From: Pseudomonadota bacterium
GTDB taxonomy: Bacteria; Pseudomonadota; Gammaproteobacteria; Acidiferrobacterales; Sulfurifustaceae
Assembly (NCBI GenBank): GCA_020354085.1
Contig: CP070641.1
Coordinates: 1,486,384 to 1,529,901 of the forward strand
Direction: 5' to 3'
Length of the DNA stretch: 43,518 nucleotides
In this document: positions 2,228 to 37,766 of the stretch, in pieces
Layout of the letters: each line of letters starts with the position of its first letter
How positions within the stretch are numbered: position 1 is the first letter of the stretch
Made by a program: the position numbers and the translations under genes
Notes under the pieces: generated by a model
The model's input: only the letters and a program-made list of their open reading frames with translations
What the model was told of the DNA's origin: nothing
Database searches by the model: none

Positions 2228-2590
2228 CTAGCGCTTGGCGATGCGATGCTCAAGCTGGAGCGCGCGGACCTTGTCGAGGGGCAGGCGCCAAAGCTTCTCG
2301 TTGGCCGACCACTGGCCACCGGCGGCACGGACTTTCTCCCGCAGGGCGCGTTCACGATAGAAGATGCGCACGCCAACGCGACGTGGACCACGCTCCACGG
2401 GGATCGCGGGCACAATAGGCGGAGGCGGCTGCCGCCAAGACATTTCCTCGATGATCAACTCGACCGTCTTGTAGCGCTTGGCAGTCTCGGAGTCGTAGCG
2501 ATATCGCACACAGACAAGCTGCCTTCCATATCGCTCGACAAGTCGCTGCGTCCCCTTCTGCCCCGGGCGGCGAACGGCTAACACATTCAT
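2228..2590 (-). CDS. Small basic hypothetical protein (C-terminal DUF5710-like motif, tentative)
   Basis: 120 aa, with a strong RBS (GAGGGAG) 5-6 nt before the ATG and high-GC codon usage. The N-terminal part LVCVRYRYD....KRYKTVELIIEE and the C-terminal part AAGGQWSANEKLWRLPLDKV resemble a small conserved family. The G-A/G-x-W-x(3)-K-x-W motif recalls DUF5710-type domains. Function unknown. Confidence 0.6.
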   Translation of the reverse strand: MNVLAVRRPGQKGTQRLVERYGRQLVCVRYRYDSETAKRYKTVELIIEEMSWRQPPPPIVPAIPVERGPRRVGVRIFYRERALREKVRAAGGQWSANEKLWRLPLDKVRALQLEHRIAKR

Positions 2591-2733
2591 GGCGCTCCCT
2601 CGCTCTTTGATGTTCCCTGAGAGCAGCTTACGCCCGCGCTCTCGCCTTGAGCAACATGCGCGCGTAGTAGCGCCTTGTCGCCCCTCTCCAATGCCCGTAA
2701 ATTTGACGAAACAGCGATTGGCCCGGAGGCCCG

Positions 2734-3816
2734 ATGCGCAGTTTCCAATGCACGTGCGGCAACACCGTGTACTTCGAGAACTCGCAGTGCGTGGTCTGCC
2801 AGCGCGCGCTGGGTTTTCTGCCGGGACGCCAAGTGATGAGCGCCATCGAGCCCAATGCCGACGGCACGCACCGTGCCTTGGCTGACGGCATGAACTACCG
2901 CCAGTGCCAGCACTACGCGAAAGAAAACGTATGCAACTGGATGGTCGCGCCCGATGACCCGAACGCGTACTGCCAGGCCTGCCGGCTCAACCAGATGATT
3001 CCGAATCTGTCCGAACCGCGTAACCGCGTGCTGTGGATGCGCATCGAGCGCGCCAAGCGGCGCTTGCTCTACACGCTCTACTCGCTCGGCCTGCCCGTGA
3101 TCGGGCGCGATGCCGATCCGGTTAACGGGCTCGCGTTCGAGTTTCTGGCCGACATGACAGACGGCTCGGAATTCACCGATATCTCCGGCGCGCAGCGCGT
3201 ACTCACCGGCCATCGCGGCGGGCTGATCACCATTAATATAGAAGAGGCCGACCCGAGTTCGCGCGAAAGCGTGCGCGAGCAGATGGGCGAGCAGTACCGC
3301 ACCCTGCTCGGCCATTTCCGGCACGAGGTGGCGCACCTGTACTGGGATCGCCTCGTGCGGGGCGCGCACTGGCACGAGCCGTTTCGCGAGCTGTTCGGCG
3401 ACGAACGCACCGATTACGACGTGGCGTTGAGCGCCTACTACGCGCAAGGCGCGCGCGCCGATTGGCAAGAGTCGTTCGTGAGTGCGTATGCCACCGCGCA
3501 TCCATGGGAGGATTGGGCGGAGACGTGGGCGCATTACCTTCACATGGTCGACACCCTCGACACCGCGCACGATTTCGGCTTCGCGCTGCAAGGCGCGGCG
3601 GTGCGCGCCCCGGAGGCAGCGTTCGCGCACGCCGCGGCGCAGACAACGCGCGTGGGGTTCGATGAATTACTTGCCGATTGGGTGCGGTTGACGCTCGCAC
3701 TCAACGCGCTCAACCGTTCGATGGGGCTGCGCGATGCCTACCCCTTTGCGCACTCCCCGCACACGGTGGAGAAGCTACGCTTCGTGCACCGCGTGATCAT
3801 GGGCGTAGCGGCCTAG
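2734..3816 (+). CDS. Zinc-ribbon domain + putative zinc metallopeptidase (zincin, HExxH)
   Basis: 360 aa, with GGAGG RBS. The N-terminal Zn ribbon is FQCTCGNTVYFENSQCVVCQ, and HEVAH lies in GHFRHEVAHLYWD. The architecture matches the zinc-ribbon/metallopeptidase family often found next to cpATP-grasp/alpha-E genes. Confidence 0.8.
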   Translation: MRSFQCTCGNTVYFENSQCVVCQRALGFLPGRQVMSAIEPNADGTHRALADGMNYRQCQHYAKENVCNWMVAPDDPNAYCQACRLNQMIPNLSEPRNRVLWMRIERAKRRLLYTLYSLGLPVIGRDADPVNGLAFEFLADMTDGSEFTDISGAQRVLTGHRGGLITINIEEADPSSRESVREQMGEQYRTLLGHFRHEVAHLYWDRLVRGAHWHEPFRELFGDERTDYDVALSAYYAQGARADWQESFVSAYATAHPWEDWAETWAHYLHMVDTLDTAHDFGFALQGAAVRAPEAAFAHAAAQTTRVGFDELLADWVRLTLALNALNRSMGLRDAYPFAHSPHTVEKLRFVHRVIMGVAA

Positions 3817-3820
3817 GCTG

Positions 3821-4555
3821 CTATTTTTCCCAGTCGAAGCGCGGCAGTCTATCGAAGGCCCGCCGCAGGCCCTCGTTCCAGCGCTTCTGCATCTCGCGAA
3901 ACATTGGCGTTTCGTAATCGAGCGTGACGTTGCGACGTAGCTCGAGCTCGTCACGCTGATAGATCGCCACTTCCACCGGCGGGCCGACCGAGATGTTTGC
4001 GCGCATGGTGGAGTCGATCGACACCAGGGCGCAGCGCGCGGCGTCTTCGAGCGAGGTGTTGGGGCGAATGATGCGATCGAGAATCGGCTTGCCGTACTTG
4101 GTCTCGCCGACTTGCAGGTACGGCTTGTCGTTCGAGGCCGAGATGTAATTGCCCTGCGGGTAGATCATATAGATATTCGGGTCTCGCCCGTGGATCTGTC
4201 CGCCCAGGATAAAGCTCGCCTCGGGGCTGATCTTGTCCTCCTTGAGCGGCTCGCGGTACTCGGCCTGCACCCGCTGGCTGATTTGCCCGATGTAGTGCGC
4301 GGCATCGAATAGGTAGTGAAAGGTATTCAAACTCTCCGGCGCCGAGGGGTCTTCGAGATCGCGCTGGATGGCGTTGAGCACCGCCTGCGTGGTGGCGAGG
4401 TTGCCGGAGGCAAGCAGCACAATCAGTCGCTCGCCGGACACGCCGAAGACGTGCATCTTGCGGTACGTGGAGATGTAGTCGACACCTGCGTTGGTGCGCG
4501 AATCGGCGGCGAACACCAAACCGGCGTCGACCTTGATGGCCAGGCAATACGTCAT
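3821..4555 (-). CDS. Anbu-type proteasome-like Ntn-hydrolase (peptidase T1 family, ancestral beta subunit)
   Basis: Start chosen at [24 protein letters not shown], where Thr immediately after Met is the expected N-terminal nucleophile. At 244 aa it has the typical Anbu length. It is divergent from the cpATP-grasp gene. Confidence 0.85.
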
Positions 4556-4670
4556 GCGCTCAATGATAGTCGCTTTTTGGGCGCGGCACTCTAGCACAAA
4601 CGCTCGGTGTTTTTGCCTTGCGCACGGATTGCTGGTATTACTGGACAGGCAAGAGCAACGACAACAACAC

Positions 4671-6125
4671 ATGGCAATTCGCTGGGGAAGCTACAAGGTC
4701 AAAGGCTACTATGACGAGCTGATTCGCGCGGCCGGCAAGCCGCGCCCGGCGGCCGCGCATGTGTGCGACTATCTGCGCACGCTCACAGACCGCGAAATCG
4801 ACGAGCGCCGCCAGGCGGCCGACGTCGCCATGCGCGTGATGGGCGTGACCTTCACCGTCTATTCCGAGGAAGGCGGCTCGATCGACCGCGCCTGGCCATT
4901 CGACATCATTCCGCGCGTCATCCCGGGCGAGGAGTGGCAGCGGGTCGAGGCCGGACTCAGGCAGCGGGTCAAGGCGCTCAACCTTTTCATCGATGATCTG
5001 TATCACGAGCAGAAGATCGTCAAGGACGGTGTCTTCCCGCGCGAGATCCTGGCCAGCTCCAAGAACTACCGCCCGCAGTGCGAGGGCGTGAGCCCACCGC
5101 GCGGGGTTTGGGCGCACATCTGCGGCTCGGACCTGATACGCGACAAGGACGGCACCATCTACGTGCTGGAGGACAACTTGCGCGTGCCGTCGGGCGTGTC
5201 CTACATGCTCGAGAACCGACTGGTGATGAAGCGCGTGTTCCCCGAGTTGTTCGAAGAACACAGCATCCGCCCGGTCGACGACTACCCTTCCCAGCTCTAC
5301 GACATGCTCTGCTCGGTGGCGCCACGCAGCGTGGCGCGGCCGGAGGTTGTGGTGCTGACTCCCGGCATTTACAACTCGGCCTACTTCGAGCACGCGTATC
5401 TTGCGCAGCAAATGGGCGCGGAGCTGGTCGAGGGCCGCGACCTCGTGGTCGAGAGCGACGATTGCGTGTACATGCGTACGGTCGAGGGGCTCACGCGCGT
5501 CGATGTCATTTATCGCCGCATCGATGACTTGTTCCTCGACCCCGAGGCGTTCAACCCCGACTCGCAGCTTGGCGTGCGGGGGCTGATGCGCGCCTGGAAG
5601 GCCGGCAAGGTCACGCTGGCCAACGCGCCCGGCGCCGGCGTGGCTGACGACAAGGTGGTGTACGCCTACGTACCGAAGGCAATCAAGTATTACCTGGGTG
5701 AAGAACCGCTGCTGCAGAACGTTCCGACCTATCTGTGCACCGACGCCAAGGAGCGCGAGCATGTCCTCGCCAATTTGGACAAGCTGGTGGTGAAACCGGC
5801 CAACGAGTCTGGCGGCTACGGCATGCTGATCGGGCCGCACGCAAGCGCCAAGGAGCGCGAGGAATTCGCCAGACTCATCCGCAAAGACCCGCGCAACTAC
5901 ATCGCGCAGCCGCTGGTGACGCTGTCGACCACGCCCACCTTGGTCGAGACGCACGTTGAGCCGCGCCACGTCGATCTGCGTCCGTTCATCCTCTCGGGCG
6001 AGTCGACTTACGTGACGACCGGGGGTCTGACGCGCGTCGCGTTGCGCAAGGGCTCGACGGTGGTCAACTCCTCGCAGGGCGGCGGCAGCAAGGATACCTG
6101 GATCGTGGACGAGGGGAGCCCTTGA
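4671..6125 (+). CDS. Circularly permuted ATP-grasp type 2 protein (COG2308-like amidoligase)
   Basis: 484 aa from [18 protein letters not shown]. The conserved blocks [49 protein letters not shown] and [19 protein letters not shown] are characteristic of this family. Confidence 0.9.
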
Positions 6126-7090
6126 TGCTGTCGCGGGTCGCGGAGAACCTCTACTGGGCGGCGCGTTACCTGGAGCGCTCCGAGAACACGGCGCGCATGA
6201 TCAACGTCAACGCCAACCTGTTGCTCGATTTGCCGCGCAACGTGCGGCCCGGGTGGGCGCCGTTGGTCGATATTTCCGGCAATCACGAGCTGTTTCGCCA
6301 GCAATACACCGACTCCGACGAACGCTCGGTGCTCAAGTTCATGGTGGGCGATACCGCCAACCCCAGCTCGATTCTGACCTCGCTAGCGCGCACCCGCGAG
6401 AACGCGCGCACTGTGCGTGACTATATTCCGCGCGAGGCCTGGGAGCAGATCAACGAGCTGCACTTCTTCGCCAAGAGCAATCTCACCAGCGTGCTCGGGC
6501 AGAAGCGCCGCTATGAATATCTGCGCGGGATTATCCTGGGCGTGCAACAGATCACGGGGCTGCTGGCCGGCACCATGTCACAGGACGAGGGTTACCAGTT
6601 TCTGCGCATGGGCCGCAATCTGGAGCGCGCCGACATGACCGCGCGCATCATCGACGTGCGCTCGGCCAATCTGCTGCCCGACAGCAGCCCGGAGCTCACG
6701 CCTTTCCAGAACATCCAATGGATGAGCGTGCTCAAATCGCTTTCGGGTTATCAGATGTACCGGCGCAGCGTGCAGACGCGCATCGCGCGGCCGGAGGTGC
6801 TGCGATTTCTGTTCAAGGAGCGGCTGTTCCCGCGCGCCTTCTATCACTGCGTGGCCGAGGTCGGCAGCTGCATGCGCTCGCTCCCTCGCCACGAAGCGGC
6901 GCTGGCGCACGTCGAACGCCTGCAAAACATCGTAATCGAGTCCGAGCCGGAGAACATGAAGCAAGCGAGCCTGCACGAGTTCATCGACGTGCTGGAGCTG
7001 GGGCTCATCGACATCAACGCCGCGATCAGTCAGACGTACTTCCTCGCCGCCGAGGCCGCGCCACCGGAGCAAAAGGCGCAACAGGCTTAG
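6125..7090 (+). CDS. Alpha-E domain protein (COG2307-like)
   Basis: The N-terminus [28 protein letters not shown] is the signature opening of alpha-E proteins. The ATG overlaps the ATP-grasp stop (TGATG), implying translational coupling. Confidence 0.9.
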   Translation: MLSRVAENLYWAARYLERSENTARMINVNANLLLDLPRNVRPGWAPLVDISGNHELFRQQYTDSDERSVLKFMVGDTANPSSILTSLARTRENARTVRDYIPREAWEQINELHFFAKSNLTSVLGQKRRYEYLRGIILGVQQITGLLAGTMSQDEGYQFLRMGRNLERADMTARIIDVRSANLLPDSSPELTPFQNIQWMSVLKSLSGYQMYRRSVQTRIARPEVLRFLFKERLFPRAFYHCVAEVGSCMRSLPRHEAALAHVERLQNIVIESEPENMKQASLHEFIDVLELGLIDINAAISQTYFLAAEAAPPEQKAQQA

Positions 7091-32081: not shown

Positions 32082-32109
32082 GGAATAATCCCCCGAATCG
32101 GATCGTCTA
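32082..32109 (+). promoter_or_regulatory. Candidate ECF-type promoter GGAAT-N17-CGTCTAG upstream of the ECF sigma gene
   Basis: GGAAT at 32082..32086 and CGTC at 32104..32107, with a 17-nt spacer, ~60 nt upstream of the ATG at 32168. ECF sigma operons are usually autoregulated from GGAAC/CGT-type promoters. Confidence 0.4.
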
Positions 32110-32167
32110 GTACGAAGGTCATACACTAGTAGTCCACCGCTGTTTCCAAGGCGACCAAACCAGCTCG

Positions 32168-32728
32168 ATGGATTTCTTCAACATTTTTCAACGTTCGCGT
32201 AGCAGCCTCAGGCAGCTCGAACAGCACCGTCAGCGGCTCTACCGCATCGCGTACTCGTGGACGCACAGCGCCGCGCTTGCCGATGATCTCGTGCAAGAGA
32301 CGCTGACCAAGGCGCTACAAAAGCACGGGCAGCTGCGGGATACCGGCGCGGGTGAGGCTTGGCTCTATACGATTCTTTCGAACTGTCTGCGCGACCACTA
32401 CCGTCGCCAGCGCGAAGCCGACGATATCGATGAGCTATGTTTGGTCGACGAAGCGGGCCCGGAACAGGTCTCCAGCCAGCAACAAATCGTCAACCAAGTG
32501 CGCACGGCGATTGCCCGGTTACCGATGGGCCAGCGTCAGGTCGTGACGCTGGTGGATCTGGAAGGGTTCAGCTACAGCGAAGTTGCCAATATCTTGGTGG
32601 TGCCCGTGGGGACGGTCATGAGCCGCCTGTGCCGCGCGCGTGCTGCCCTCAAGGAGATTCTTTCGGCAGTTCGCCAAAACGATGCAGAGCCGGCCGCGCC
32701 TAGCGCGAGAATCCGGAGGATCAAGTGA
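32168..32728 (+). CDS. ECF-type RNA polymerase sigma factor (sigma-70 family)
   Basis: Region 2 LYRIAYSWTHSAALADDLVQETLTKAL and region 4 QRQVVTLVDLEGFSYSEVANILVVPVGTVMSRLCRARAAL. Confidence 0.9.
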   Translation: MDFFNIFQRSRSSLRQLEQHRQRLYRIAYSWTHSAALADDLVQETLTKALQKHGQLRDTGAGEAWLYTILSNCLRDHYRRQREADDIDELCLVDEAGPEQVSSQQQIVNQVRTAIARLPMGQRQVVTLVDLEGFSYSEVANILVVPVGTVMSRLCRARAALKEILSAVRQNDAEPAAPSARIRRIK

Positions 32729-33540
32729 TGAAGGACAATCAATTTTCGCAGGAATTTTTGAACGCGTTCGTGGACGATCAGTTGACGGCCGAAGAGAAGT
32801 CTCGTGCCTATCCGCAAATCAGCCAGGACGAGTCACTCAATCGTGCCGTTTGTGAGCTGCGCAAGACGCGTGATCTCGTGCAACTTGCCTATCGTGATGT
32901 CCCAACGCCGCCGTCGCGCGGTCTTCCGCAGCCGCGCACCGGACTTCTCGGTTTGAGCCTCGCCGCCGGCATCGCGCTGGGTATCGGCATTTCGCTCGGC
33001 TGGTTTCTGCACGAACCGAAGATGCCGACCGTGACTACAGTCGCCCATCAACCGCTACGACCGGCAGGAGTGTCCGTCGTCGCCGCGCCAGCAGGAGCGT
33101 TACCGAGTGCGCCGCGCGAGGTGGCGACGCCGGTGACGGCGGGGGCTACCCAGGCCGTAGCGCCAATGAGTCAAACTGCCAAGGTGCTCATGCACCTAAG
33201 CCAGGGCGAAACATCACGGCTCGACCAGGCGCTGACCGAAATCGAACAACTCGTGCAGTACTACCGCACAAGCGGTCAGACGGCGCGCGTCGAAGTGGTT
33301 ATTAACAGTGAAGGCTTGAATCTCGTGCGTAGCGACGTGTCGCCATTCCCGGAACGCGTCCAACGTTTGCAACGCGAATACGACAATCTCGCGTTTGTTG
33401 CCTGTCAGAACACGATCGACCGGCTCAAACGCGAAAAGGGTATCACCGCGCAGTTGCTGCCCGGTGTGTCCGTGATCGACTCTGGGGTAGTGCAGCTCAT
33501 GCGCCGCCAACACCAAGGTTGGTCCTACATTCAGGTCTAG
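32725..33540 (+). CDS. Membrane anti-sigma factor with periplasmic DsrE/DsrF-like (COG1416-type) domain
   Basis: The start overlaps the sigma stop (GTGATGA). The N-terminal anti-sigma-like helices are FLNAFVDDQLTAEEKSRAY...CELRKTRDLVQLAY, followed by one TM helix (LLGLSLAAGIALGIGISLGWFL) and a P/A/V-rich linker. The C-terminal ~115 aa (KVLMHLSQGE...VEVVINSEGLNLV...FVACQNT...VIDSGVVQLMRRQHQGWSYIQV) are colinear with the next gene and with DsrE-like proteins. Confidence 0.75.
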   Translation: MMKDNQFSQEFLNAFVDDQLTAEEKSRAYPQISQDESLNRAVCELRKTRDLVQLAYRDVPTPPSRGLPQPRTGLLGLSLAAGIALGIGISLGWFLHEPKMPTVTTVAHQPLRPAGVSVVAAPAGALPSAPREVATPVTAGATQAVAPMSQTAKVLMHLSQGETSRLDQALTEIEQLVQYYRTSGQTARVEVVINSEGLNLVRSDVSPFPERVQRLQREYDNLAFVACQNTIDRLKREKGITAQLLPGVSVIDSGVVQLMRRQHQGWSYIQV

Positions 33541-33604
33541 TAGCAACACCCATTGGAAGTTGTAACTGGTAGAAGCTCATAGGAGCAAGGATCAGGAGAA
33601 ACCG

Positions 33605-34105
33605 ATGCGTAAGACTATCTCAATAACTCTCATGAGTCTGATCGCCGCGCTAGCGCTCGGCTGCAAGCAGGAGCCCGCGCCGAAGCCGGCTGCGCACCCT
33701 GCTAAGACCGAATCTGGGGCTAAGAGCGAACCCGGTACGTACGAAAAGCAAAAGGTTGTGTACCACATCAACTACAACGATGAGAAGGAACTCAAAGGCG
33801 CGATGCGTAATGTGCAAAACCACATTAACGCGGTCGGCAAAGAGAATCTGGATCTGAAGGTAGTCATGCACGGTAACGGCGTCGACTTGCTGAAACAAGC
33901 CAACGACAATCCGGATATGCAGTCGACCGTGATCAACCTCAAGAAGCAGGGTATTGGCTTCCAAGTCTGCGCAAACACCCTGAAGGGCAAGAAGATCAAC
34001 TATAAGAACGACCTGTTCGACGTATCCGAGTCGGACATCGTGCCGAGCGGTGTAGCGGAGATCGCTGCGCTCCAGCAGAAGGGCTACTCCTACGTGAAGC
34101 CGTAA
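33605..34105 (+). CDS. DsrE/DsrF-like (COG1416-type) lipoprotein
   Basis: Lipobox LALGC, then KVVYHINYNDEKELKGAMRNVQNHI...LKVVMHGNGVDLL...FQVCANTLKGKKI...IVPSGVAEIAALQQKGYSYVKP, the pattern I associate with the COG1416 branch of the DsrE superfamily. Confidence 0.8.
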   Translation: MRKTISITLMSLIAALALGCKQEPAPKPAAHPAKTESGAKSEPGTYEKQKVVYHINYNDEKELKGAMRNVQNHINAVGKENLDLKVVMHGNGVDLLKQANDNPDMQSTVINLKKQGIGFQVCANTLKGKKINYKNDLFDVSESDIVPSGVAEIAALQQKGYSYVKP

Positions 34106-34183
34106 TCACGCAACAGACAACGTCTTAAGTCCCAAGAGGACTGAAAAACAAAAGCAAAAACTAGACTGATTGCCTCTCTCCTC

Positions 34184-34211
34184 AGCCCGCGCAGTACGCG
34201 GGCTTTTTTTT
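34184..34211 (+). terminator. Rho-independent terminator of the sigma/anti-sigma/DsrE-like operon
   Basis: AGCCCGCG-CAGTA-CGCGGGCT followed by TTTTTTTT. Confidence 0.8.
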
Positions 34212-34238
34212 GCGCCCTGCATGGATGCAGTAGTGCCG

Positions 34239-34508
34239 CGAGAGCACAGGGATGTGCGGAGCGGCGGTGCAGGGACACACACATGCCGGGCCAGCGAACG
34301 GATGCGCGCCTGGCGCCGGCGCGACCTCCACGAATGGCGAAAGCCGGTCTCTCTCGGCATCCTCGGCAACCGCTCCTTGCGTCGCGCTACCTCCTCCCTC
34401 CCTGGAGTCGTGCCTCCCGTGCTGTACAGGGACGTACGAATACCGCGAGACGCAGGAAGCTGGGAGCGGTCAACACTTGTGCATGCCTGTACCTCCCGAG
34501 AGCACAGG
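34239..34508 (+). repeat. Dispersed direct repeats in a long spacer: CGAGAGCACAGG x2 and CAGGGA x4
   Basis: The 12-mer occurs at 34239..34250 and 34497..34508. CAGGGA occurs at 34247, 34270, 34427 and 34516. No convincing ORF lies in this interval. Confidence 0.5.
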
Positions 34509-34724
34509 CGACTACCAGGGATGCTGGGGGCTAGGGCGATCCCAGAAGGAAATCCTAAGGAAGTACCGCTGCTGGCCCGCCGAGTGGATTTCTTTCTCTA
34601 GCCCCCGAACGGCAACCGTCCTTCTAGAAGGCTGGCTTGCGGTGGCGTGTTGCGTACATCCGCCTTCGACGACTATCCTTTGCGCCCACCACAAATCAGC
34701 CCAGCCTCAAATACTTCAACGGCC

Positions 34725-36438: not shown

Positions 36439-36563
36439 GGGAAATATCCCCGAATTTAAGCAGGTAGGTGGCGAAAAACCGAGCGGCAAGCTTGTAATTG
36501 CGCCCGCCGGCCGCACAAAGTTGATTATACTTGTTAGGCCAACGAAACAGAGGGGAGGTCTGC

Positions 36564-37766
36564 GTGAACCTGATGGAAGGTTTCGTCTCATTGCCGTGGT
36601 GGGGATATGTCTTGGTCACACTGGCCCTTACGCATATCACCATCGCTTCCGTTACCATCTTTTTGCATCGCCACCAGGCCCATCGCGCGCTCGACCTGCA
36701 CCCGGTGGTCTCGCATTTTTTCCGTTTTTGGCTGTGGCTCACGACCGGCATGGTCACCAAGGAGTGGGCCGCGATTCACCGCAAGCACCACGCCAAGGTC
36801 GAGACCGCCGACGATCCGCATAGCCCCAAGGTGTTCGGCATTCGCAAGGTCTTGCTTGAGGGCTCGGAACTGTACCGCGCCGAGGCCAAGAACCGTGAGA
36901 CGCTGGAAAAATATGGTCACGGTACGCCCGATGACTGGATCGAGCGCCATGTGTACACGCGCCATTCCGGTAAGGGCATCGCAATGATGTTGCTTGTCAA
37001 TCTGCTGCTGTTTGGCCCGATCGGCATCACCATCTGGGCCGTGCAGATGATCTGGATTCCAATTTTTGCCGCCGGTGTGATCAACGGTATTGGACACTAT
37101 TGGGGATACCGTAATTACGAAGTCACGGACGCCTCTACCAACATCGTGCCGTGGGGCATTTTGATCGGCGGTGAGGAATTGCACAACAACCATCACACCT
37201 TCGCCAGCTCGGCAAAGTTGTCGTCGAAGTGGTGGGAGTTCGACATCGGCTGGGCATATATACGCACGCTCGCAAGTCTCGGTCTGGCGCGGATCAAGAA
37301 GATCCCCCCGCAATTGACCCTCGACAGTGCCAAGCAGCACATCGATCTCGAGACCGTTCGCGCCGTCATTCAGGGACGCTTCAAGGTCATGGCAGAGTTC
37401 GCGCGCGTGGTCATGCGCAGTGTGCACCGCGAGGAGATGAAAAAAGCCGATCGCAGCGACCGCGAGACGTGGCGCTTACTCAAACGCGCGCGTCGTCTCA
37501 TGGTGCGCGAGCGCGCCTTACTCGATGACGTGTCGCGTCGTTGGCTCGCCAAGGCGCTGGCACATAATCCCACGCTCGATACCGTGTACGCGATGAAGGA
37601 GAAGCTCGCGCACATCTGGAAACGCTCGGCCACGACGCAAGATCAGCTGATACAGGCGCTTCAGGATTGGTGCCATGAGGCCGAGGCCACCGGCATCGAA
37701 GCGCTGCGCCGTTTCGCGCAGCGCCTGCGTAGCTACTCGCTAGCGCCAAATCTGGCTGCCGCCTGA
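36564..37766 (+). CDS. Membrane fatty-acid (acyl-lipid/acyl-CoA delta-9 type) desaturase, DesA-like, with long C-terminal extension
   Basis: GTG start 5 nt after GGGGAGG. Histidine boxes HRHQAH, HRKHH and HNNHH. After the last box there are ~170 further residues. Confidence 0.9.

Follow-up and report, generated by a model that had tools for sequence, protein, structure and literature searches.

Here we describe a three-gene operon in a 43,518-nt stretch of DNA from a Pseudomonadota bacterium of the Sulfurifustaceae (Gammaproteobacteria, Acidiferrobacterales; contig CP070641.1 of assembly GCA_020354085.1), the whole of which we call the window. Three open reading frames (ORFs), all on the plus strand, lie with a promoter and a terminator within 32082..34212, and encode an ECF (extracytoplasmic function) sigma factor, an anti-sigma factor and a DsrE-like protein. 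Judged by its sequence, the unit is best described as an ECF26-like pair with an MTH1491-type DsrE-like periplasmic module; the sigma/anti-sigma pair is of a known kind, and it is the DsrE-like putative sensor module on the anti-sigma factor that is new. Taking the evidence as a whole, we lean towards the explanation that this is an autoregulated operon, in which a periplasmic DsrE-like domain would act as a sensor of sulfur species via Cys226 (residue numbering of the anti-sigma factor runs from the ATG at 32728).

The DsrE-like nature of the two domains was approached by sequence and by fold. BLASTP aligns them with each other at 24% identity over 123 aa (E 6e-7), in agreement with the block-by-block alignment given in an earlier annotation of this DNA, made from the letters alone (the first-pass annotation). 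The C-terminal domain of the anti-sigma factor scores 17.9-20.7 bits with Pfam DsrE (PF02635), under the 22.7 cut-off, and NCBIfam returned nothing for it; because the Pfam score is sub-threshold, its assignment rests on sequence, profile and fold searches of the Protein Data Bank (PDB). In these, the domain matches MTH1491 (PDB 1L1S) with E 5e-10 (phmmer), a profile of 75 anti-sigma family sequences matches the same structure with E 2.6e-14, and a joint profile of both paralog families does so with E 2.3e-26. Foldseek, given the AlphaFold2 (AF2) model of the domain, places 1L1S first (template modelling score, TM-score, 0.84), then ST0148, DsrE of DsrEFH (2HY5_A, E 6e-5) and YchN. The free protein is above the cut-off with Pfam DsrE (42.3 bits) and matches 1L1S with E 2.8e-10; its AF2 model has a predicted local distance difference test score (pLDDT) of 88 and superposes on 1L1S with a TM-score of 0.91 and a root-mean-square deviation of 1.7 Å, its further fold matches being ST0148, DsrE/DsrF-family structures, DsrEFH and TusBCD. 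On sequence and predicted fold, then, both domains are MTH1491-type members of the DsrE-like fold, and the DsrE-like assignment made in the first-pass annotation is borne out.

MTH1491, which we take to be a COG1416 protein, and ST0148 (2PD2) are the best matches by sequence as well as by fold, and the similarity to this branch extends over the whole ~110 aa, including the C-x-N-[ST] block and the C-terminal G-[WY]-x-Y. These two are stand-alone cytoplasmic archaeal proteins, whereas the window has exported copies of the domain, one of them joined to an anti-sigma factor. The fold of both window domains is also that of DsrEFH/TusBCD and DsrE3A (Foldseek 2HY5_A, 2D1P_A), and so is the position of a single Cys, putatively functional here, where a helix begins after a beta-strand; both Cys226 and Cys78 of TusD stand after a beta-strand and before a helix. 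Neither DsrE nor TusD is matched by our sequence profiles, and the domains are related to them by structure only. DsrEFH and TusBCD are, moreover, cytoplasmic heterohexamers with F/H or B/C subunits, which pass sulfur to DsrC or TusE, and this was not seen here: no dsrF/H-like genes adjoin the operon in any clade, and both window domains are exported. An anti-sigma factor that carries a DsrE-like domain did not turn up in our literature search, and the first-pass annotation was likewise not aware of a characterised one.

Across the two paralog families together, only a Gly, the Cys and a C-terminal Tyr are invariant. Cys226, in an A-C-x-x-T block of the periplasmic domain, is found in 75/75 species-level anti-sigma sequences, which range down to ~30% identity. 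The claim that both copies keep a single Cys in a C-[QA]-N-T block stands in this respect, but another invariant Cys of the anti-sigma factor lies on the cytoplasmic side (Cys42, helix 3; 75/75).

The second gene of the operon is, on sequence grounds, a class I-type anti-sigma factor without a zinc motif. AF2 places three helices in its N-terminus (residues 8-15, 21-33 and 35-56, pLDDT >90), then a transmembrane helix (76-94), disorder (95-146) and an alpha/beta domain (150-270, pLDDT >90). Hydropathy shows a sole peak above 1.6, in keeping with one transmembrane segment, and a signal peptide is absent; the N-terminus should therefore be cytoplasmic, and the DsrE-like domain should be in the periplasm. 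The one transmembrane helix and the periplasmic placing of the C-terminal domain in the first-pass annotation thus agree with both methods; its linker of ~75 aa proved too long, the actual length being ~55 aa in the window and varying among homologs. EcfR6 of Sinorhizobium meliloti aligns over its residues 2-54 to our N-terminal family profile (hhalign Prob 88%, E 3e-6). In 20 diverse N-terminal segments of the family the two most frequent weak Pfam matches are zf-HC2 (in 5, best E 0.0012) and RseA_N (in 3, best E 0.005). The H-x3-C-x2-C zinc motif is absent, its positions reading E35, R39 and C42 when taken from the helix boundaries.

That this gene might encode a membrane-anchored DsrE-like protein which just happens to lie in one operon with a sigma factor, and is no anti-sigma factor, we consider highly improbable. 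It is true that the window protein itself has no significant anti-sigma match in Pfam or NCBIfam, and the N-terminal profile matched no anti-sigma factor among the PDB sequences. Against this stand the EcfR6 alignment and the two leading Pfam matches given above, the canonical layout of anti-sigma domain, transmembrane helix and extracytoplasmic domain, and the invariable translational coupling to sigma: the sigma gene lies directly upstream in 74/74 related loci for which upstream sequence is available, and in 72/77 loci the two genes share 4 nt. The anti-sigma identity proposed in the first-pass annotation is upheld by the linkage and the profile match together.

The first gene product (186 aa) is an ECF sigma factor, as first proposed, with Sigma70_r2 (58 bits) and Sigma70_r4_2 (56 bits) in Pfam and sigma70-ECF TIGR02937 at 90.6 bits (cut-off 42.9) in NCBIfam, where no equivalog reached its cut-off. 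We took rpoE6-ecfR6 of S. meliloti pSymA as a bona fide ECF26 reference; RpoE6 is 40% identical to the window sigma (E 4e-27), which equals the highest identity for any plasmid-borne ECF. Two further traits of ECF26 are present: a promoter which fits the consensus -35 GGAATA / -10 GT (PMC6180224), and a downstream co-transcribed anti-sigma factor with an anti-sigma domain at its N-terminus, one transmembrane helix and a periplasmic domain. This sequence comparison suggests that the sigma belongs to, or neighbours, an ECF group with a characterised signal, in which the anti-sigma architecture differs. The group placement called for in the first-pass annotation can be given as ECF26-like by this proxy, the 40% identity to RpoE6, and the periplasmic domain of the S. 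meliloti anti-sigma factors in that group has been described as RsiW-like. The main text of the ECF reclassification paper mentions neither DsrE nor sulfur.

In S. meliloti, thiosulfate and taurine activate RpoE1 and RpoE4, probably via sulfite, and the target is the sulfite dehydrogenase SorT (PMC3511301). Promoters of these systems have been mapped by 5′ rapid amplification of cDNA ends: GGAATAA-N15-CGTC for rpoE4 and GGAATAA-N15-TGTC for the rpoE1 operon (PMC6180224). The architecture of the window promoter is identical to that of rpoE4. RpoE4-EcfR4, RpoE1-EcfR1 and RpoE6-EcfR6 have the same gene order and protein layout as the pair described here. A defective ecfR1 allele leads to constitutive expression of RpoE1 targets, the EcfR-type proteins acting as anti-sigma factors; these consist of an anti-sigma domain, a transmembrane helix and a periplasmic domain likened to RsiW, and the activation mechanism was called hypothetical (PMC6180224). 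The differences lie in the periplasmic domain and in the target: that domain is described as RsiW-like in S. meliloti and is MTH1491-type DsrE-like here (Pfam DsrE gave no match in EcfR6), and the target is sorT there and, by prediction, a secreted DsrE-like protein here.

GGAAT-N17-CGTC, noted in the first-pass annotation as a candidate autoregulated promoter, occurs once in the 43.5-kb window, even at one mismatch, 60 nt before the sigma ATG. In 71/72 related loci GGAATAA-N15-CGTC lies 40-105 nt before the sigma start while the sequence of the spacer differs freely; as the boxes are kept and the spacer varies, this is a clear phylogenetic footprint. Both strands of the related loci that we compared (721 kb in total, numbered with an L, such as L027 and L064) were scanned for this promoter. 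Of the 90 matches, all but two either stand before sigma or face a divergent DsrE-like gene, the latter in beta-type loci, on the other strand and ~35 nt off; the exceptions, in L015 and L017, are in-gene. Such a second, back-to-back promoter towards the divergent DsrE gene is present in 18/18 beta-type loci (with A or G at the seventh base). The secreted DsrE-like gene is thus tied to sigma twice, by co-transcription in gamma-type loci and by a promoter copy of its own in beta-type loci, and these two kinds of linkage are good comparative evidence for a direct sigma target. We predict that the sigma recognises GGAATAA-N15-CGTC and drives its own operon, and that the secreted DsrE-like gene is its direct target.

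The free DsrE-like protein consists of a signal peptide, a lipobox (ALALG-C20), a ~28-aa linker and then the MTH1491-type domain. An N-terminal signal peptide and the Cys of C-x-N-[ST] are present in nearly all orthologs; most show A-x-A sites for signal peptidase I without a Cys there, and a lipobox is confined to a subset that includes the window copy. Export, by these sequence features, is the conserved trait of the free protein and lipidation is not, so that of the lipoprotein described in the first-pass annotation the LALGC lipobox of the window copy and the periplasmic site stand, and lipidation as a family trait does not. An analogy to outer-membrane-lipoprotein sensors of the RcsF or NlpE type was dropped since the lipobox is not conserved. 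The free DsrE family comprises 5,225 clusters, ~8 times the anti-sigma family, and other genomes, which have neither the sigma pair nor the promoter, contain relatives ~70% identical to the window copy (over ~77% of its length). As it is found without the sigma system, the free protein has a function of its own, and it seems that the anti-sigma factor took up a homologous DsrE-like domain as its sensor; the paralogs are 20-30% identical. His54, His73 and His89 (166-aa numbering), with Cys122, are invariant in close orthologs of the secreted protein; of these residues the anti-sigma domain and MTH1491 retain just the first His and the Cys. On these alignments, the secreted paralog may have a His/Cys site which the sensor paralog lacks.

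Relatives of the anti-sigma factor number 636 in a large protein database at 90% clustering, and the best 120 are all full length. In a library at 50% identity there are 407 representatives (E<=1e-30), and almost all of the best 150 of these are 230-300 aa long, with N- and C-terminal parts both matched. The named hosts are almost all sulfur-oxidising Gamma- and Betaproteobacteria. Among species-representative genomes, the gammaproteobacterial hosts are Acidiferrobacterales (Sulfurifustis, Sulfuricaulis, Acidiferrobacter) and metagenome-assembled genomes (MAGs) of Candidatus Muproteobacteria; the betaproteobacterial hosts are Sulfuricella, Sulfurirhabdus, Sulfurimicrobium and Parasulfuritortus, with MAGs of Gallionellaceae and Hydrogenophilales. 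The cultured host genera are neutrophilic sulfur-oxidising chemolithoautotrophs (PMC6397845). SVA_2502-2506, which include the corresponding genes of Sulfurifustis variabilis (SVA_2503-2505), are not listed in the proteome supplement for that species grown on thiosulfate.

We propose that the sigma would be held by its co-translated anti-sigma factor, with the periplasmic domain as sensor. Reduced or reactive sulfur (polysulfide or persulfide, thiosulfate, tetrathionate or sulfite) would modify or bind Cys226, and a resulting change in the domain or in its oligomeric state could expose the disordered linker to proteolysis, or otherwise inactivate the anti-sigma factor. The sigma would then be freed, and the secreted DsrE-like protein would be induced so as to deal with that compound; on this view the sensor is a tethered relative of the protein that it regulates. 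Sulfur sensing by the periplasmic domain is something that we infer; it is strengthened by the near-restriction of the family to sulfur oxidisers, and by the ECF26-type promoter shared with the sulfite-responsive S. meliloti sigmas. DsrE-family cysteines carry persulfide (DsrE, TusD) or thiosulfonate (DsrE3A). Single-pass anti-sigma factors with cytoplasmic and extracytoplasmic domains, as here, are found in RpoE-RseA-RseB of Escherichia coli and SigW-RsiW of Bacillus subtilis, where regulated proteolysis frees the sigma and, in the first case, there is a periplasmic partner protein, RseB; both the signal and the sensor domain are different here. The disordered Pro/Ala-rich juxtamembrane linker and the Gly-rich transmembrane helix are circumstantial evidence for proteolysis of the RseA/RsiW type.

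Several points weigh against this reading. No sulfur-oxidation genes lie beside the operon in any clade, and in the Acidiferrobacter clade (L042-L057) no free DsrE gene adjoins the pair. The persulfide chemistry would be borrowed from distant DsrE/TusD relatives which are reached only by fold: hhalign against E. coli TusD gives E 0.33, with a sole local alignment that sets Cys226 on Cys78, and in the literature we came across no work on the function of the MTH1491/COG1416 branch. Regulated proteolysis of the anti-sigma factor is assumed in our scheme just by analogy. Lastly, there is a hint in the invariant cytoplasmic cysteines (sigma Cys73 and Cys155, anti-sigma Cys42) that another input may exist.

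One rival is that these cysteines form a redox- or persulfide-sensitive site like that of RsrA-SigR, with the periplasmic DsrE-like domain as a tethered enzyme or carrier and not a sensor. Sigma Cys73 (region 2) and Cys155 (region 4.2) are invariant or nearly so over 73 species representatives, so that with Cys42 all three are kept over 73-75 species, and RpoE6/EcfR6, which lack them, carry Leu, Met and Ala at these positions. When sulfite was added externally to S. meliloti there was no induction, and its authors assumed that sulfite is generated intracellularly (PMC3511301), which would suit a cytoplasmic switch. RsrA-SigR is indeed a case of Cys-based ECF control, and an invariant Cys in anti-sigma helix 3 is shared with it; however RsrA is soluble and zinc-binding through H-x3-C-x2-C, whereas one Cys is left of that motif here and the main candidate sensor is periplasmic. 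Given also that Cys226 is just as invariant, and that sensors usually consist of a domain tethered by a long flexible linker, we think a purely cytoplasmic switch unlikely. The three cysteines may be a family-specific thiol or metal site common to the sigma and the anti-sigma domain.

The presence of the same fold, with the same invariant Gly, Cys and Tyr, in sensor and secreted protein raises the question of whether the two meet. DsrE-fold proteins form oligomers: hexamers in the case of DsrEFH and TusBCD, and in 8UJA a cage assembled from an ST0148-like trimer. It is possible, though we give it a clear minority of our belief, that the periplasmic domain binds the secreted protein as a hetero-oligomer and senses no small molecule directly. 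The unloaded secreted protein would then stabilise the anti-sigma factor, as RseB does RseA and CpxP does CpxA, and once it was loaded or drawn off the anti-sigma factor would be degraded and more secreted protein made. Such titration would fit both this oligomeric habit and the conservation of the secreted protein as a predicted sigma target in two gene arrangements; it fits less well with the lack of an adjoining free DsrE gene in the Acidiferrobacter clade, or with paralogs just 20-30% identical. A related idea, which we regard as doubtful, is a periplasmic sulfur relay in which the secreted protein hands sulfane sulfur or thiosulfonate from Cys to Cys to the anti-sigma domain, so that the loading state of the carrier, and not free ligand, would set sigma activity; a second input, a cytoplasmic one through the triad of sigma Cys73 and Cys155 and anti-sigma Cys42, could then combine periplasmic with cytoplasmic sulfur status. 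Finally the signal may have nothing to do with sulfur and be envelope or folding stress, a metal or the periplasmic thiol-disulfide balance, the link to sulfur oxidisers being one of phylogeny only. The literature gave no function for the MTH1491 branch, the flanking genes are housekeeping ones and the free protein also occurs beside unrelated genes in genomes without the system; yet the family spans two proteobacterial classes while its named hosts remain almost all sulfur oxidisers, the promoter type is that of sulfite-responsive ECF26 sigmas, and the sole invariant polar residue common to the paralogs is a Cys. We thus hold a non-sulfur signal to be quite improbable, and retain sensing of sulfur species through Cys226 as the explanation that we prefer.

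The features of the operon are collected in Table 1. The sigma stop and the GTG start of the anti-sigma gene overlap as GTGA, and the 270-aa form from the ATG is the version deposited in the protein database. AGGAG stands 6 nt 5′ of the ATG of the DsrE-like gene. We scanned the 64-nt spacer for a sigma-70-like promoter, an ECF-type motif and a terminator and found none, so that the three genes, most simply, form a single transcription unit; the ORF coordinates agree with the three-gene unit (GTGATGA overlap, 64-nt gap) of the first-pass annotation. The strong terminator which it placed at the end was likewise confirmed, with a stem-loop at 34184..34204 and the tail beyond. Rfam and tRNA scans of the window gave no matches.

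Table 1. Coordinates of the operon and its parts in the window.
Feature	Coordinates	Strand	Details and basis
Predicted ECF-type autoregulated promoter	32082..32107	+	-35 GGAATAA 32082-32088; spacer 15 nt; -10 CGTC 32104-32107
ECF sigma factor, ECF26-like, 186 aa	32168..32728	+	Sigma70_r2 + Sigma70_r4_2; 40% identity to RpoE6
Sigma Cys73 / Cys155 codons	32384-32386 / 32630-32632	+	region 2 / region 4.2
Single-pass anti-sigma factor	32725..33540	+	271 aa from GTG 32725; 270 aa from ATG 32728
Class-I-type anti-sigma domain of three helices (residues 1-57), predicted cytoplasmic	32728..32898	+	hhalign vs EcfR6; AF2
Anti-sigma Cys42 / Cys226 codons	32851-32853 / 33403-33405	+	cytoplasmic helix 3 / A-C-Q-N-T block
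Transmembrane helix, residues ~72-95	32941..33012	+	hydropathy; AF2 helix 76-94
Pro/Ala/Val-rich disordered linker, predicted periplasmic, ~55 aa	33013..33174	+	pLDDT ~50; gappy unconserved alignment columns
MTH1491-type DsrE-like domain, predicted periplasmic, residues 150-270	33175..33537	+	1L1S match; profiles; Foldseek
Intergenic spacer, 64 nt	33541..33604	+	ribosome-binding site AGGAG 33594-33598; promoter/terminator scan empty
Secreted DsrE-like protein, 166 aa	33605..34105	+	Pfam DsrE above cut-off; 1L1S by sequence and fold
Free DsrE-like protein lipobox Cys20 / Cys122 codons	33662-33664 / 33968-33970	+	Cys122 in V-C-A-N-T block
Intrinsic terminator	34184..34212	+	8-bp stem with 7 G-C pairs; 5-nt loop; T8 tail

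The neighbours of the operon are housekeeping genes: purMN, NUDIX and MscS, and pentose-phosphate and glycogen genes in the Betaproteobacteria, where the module sits among pgl, pgi, gnd, zwf and glgA (L064 4918-7326; L077 1287-2759 and 4799-7232). A conserved gene for a 473-aa outer-membrane porin-like protein (weak Porin_O_P, 30 bits) lies directly 3′ of the divergent DsrE gene in 13 Sulfuricella-like loci, for example at L064 1309-2730 (minus strand), and probably shares its sigma-dependent transcript. Two paralogous systems adjoin in a gammaproteobacterial MAG (L027 1..5300). One is beta-type, with a sequence that partly matches the Sulfuricella-like porin (35% identity over 137 aa) after its divergent DsrE-like gene, sigma at 1787-2320 and anti-sigma at 2320-3066; the other is gamma-type, with sigma at 3441-3995, anti-sigma at 4001-4720 and DsrE at 4846-5208. 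In the Acidiferrobacter clade the anti-sigma gene is followed by that of a secreted seven-bladed beta-propeller (Lactonase PF10282; for example L049 4695-5864), the signal peptide of which carries an RR motif.

Other parts of the window also drew our attention. The terminator of the operon is separated from the MscS-like channel gene by ~435 nt (34213-34646), in which no convincing ORF, Rfam match or sigma-70-like promoter was found. A conserved ORF of ~400 aa at 36531-37766 (plus strand) has an odd pairing of Pfam matches, FA_desaturase in its N-terminal and the DDE_Tnp_ISL3 transposase in its C-terminal part, and several genomes have this pairing at the corresponding syntenic position (L001 7869-9059, L003, L005). 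At 3821-7090 a proteasome-subunit-like gene (3821-4672, minus strand) lies near an Alpha-E domain gene (6122-7090, plus strand), a pair which resembles the bacterial proteasome-homolog (Anbu-type) neighbourhoods of the literature.

The sulfide and persulfide sensors SqrR, CstR, FisR and BigR are cytoplasmic regulators, and extracytoplasmic sensing of reduced sulfur by chemolithotrophic sulfur oxidisers is poorly understood. The sensing step of the sulfite-responsive S. meliloti ECF26 sigmas has, for its part, been called hypothetical (PMC6180224). The family described here offers a simple, conserved test case, with one candidate sensor Cys, one promoter motif and essentially one target gene, and cultured hosts are available in Sulfurifustis variabilis and Sulfuricella. 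Were the signal confirmed, the parts of the system could be turned into an orthogonal biosensor of compact size for reduced sulfur species; were the system a true relay, it would be a sulfur-transfer counterpart of the phosphorelay. Whichever is the case, the system indicates that some members of the MTH1491 branch are exported, and it would give that branch its first functional context.

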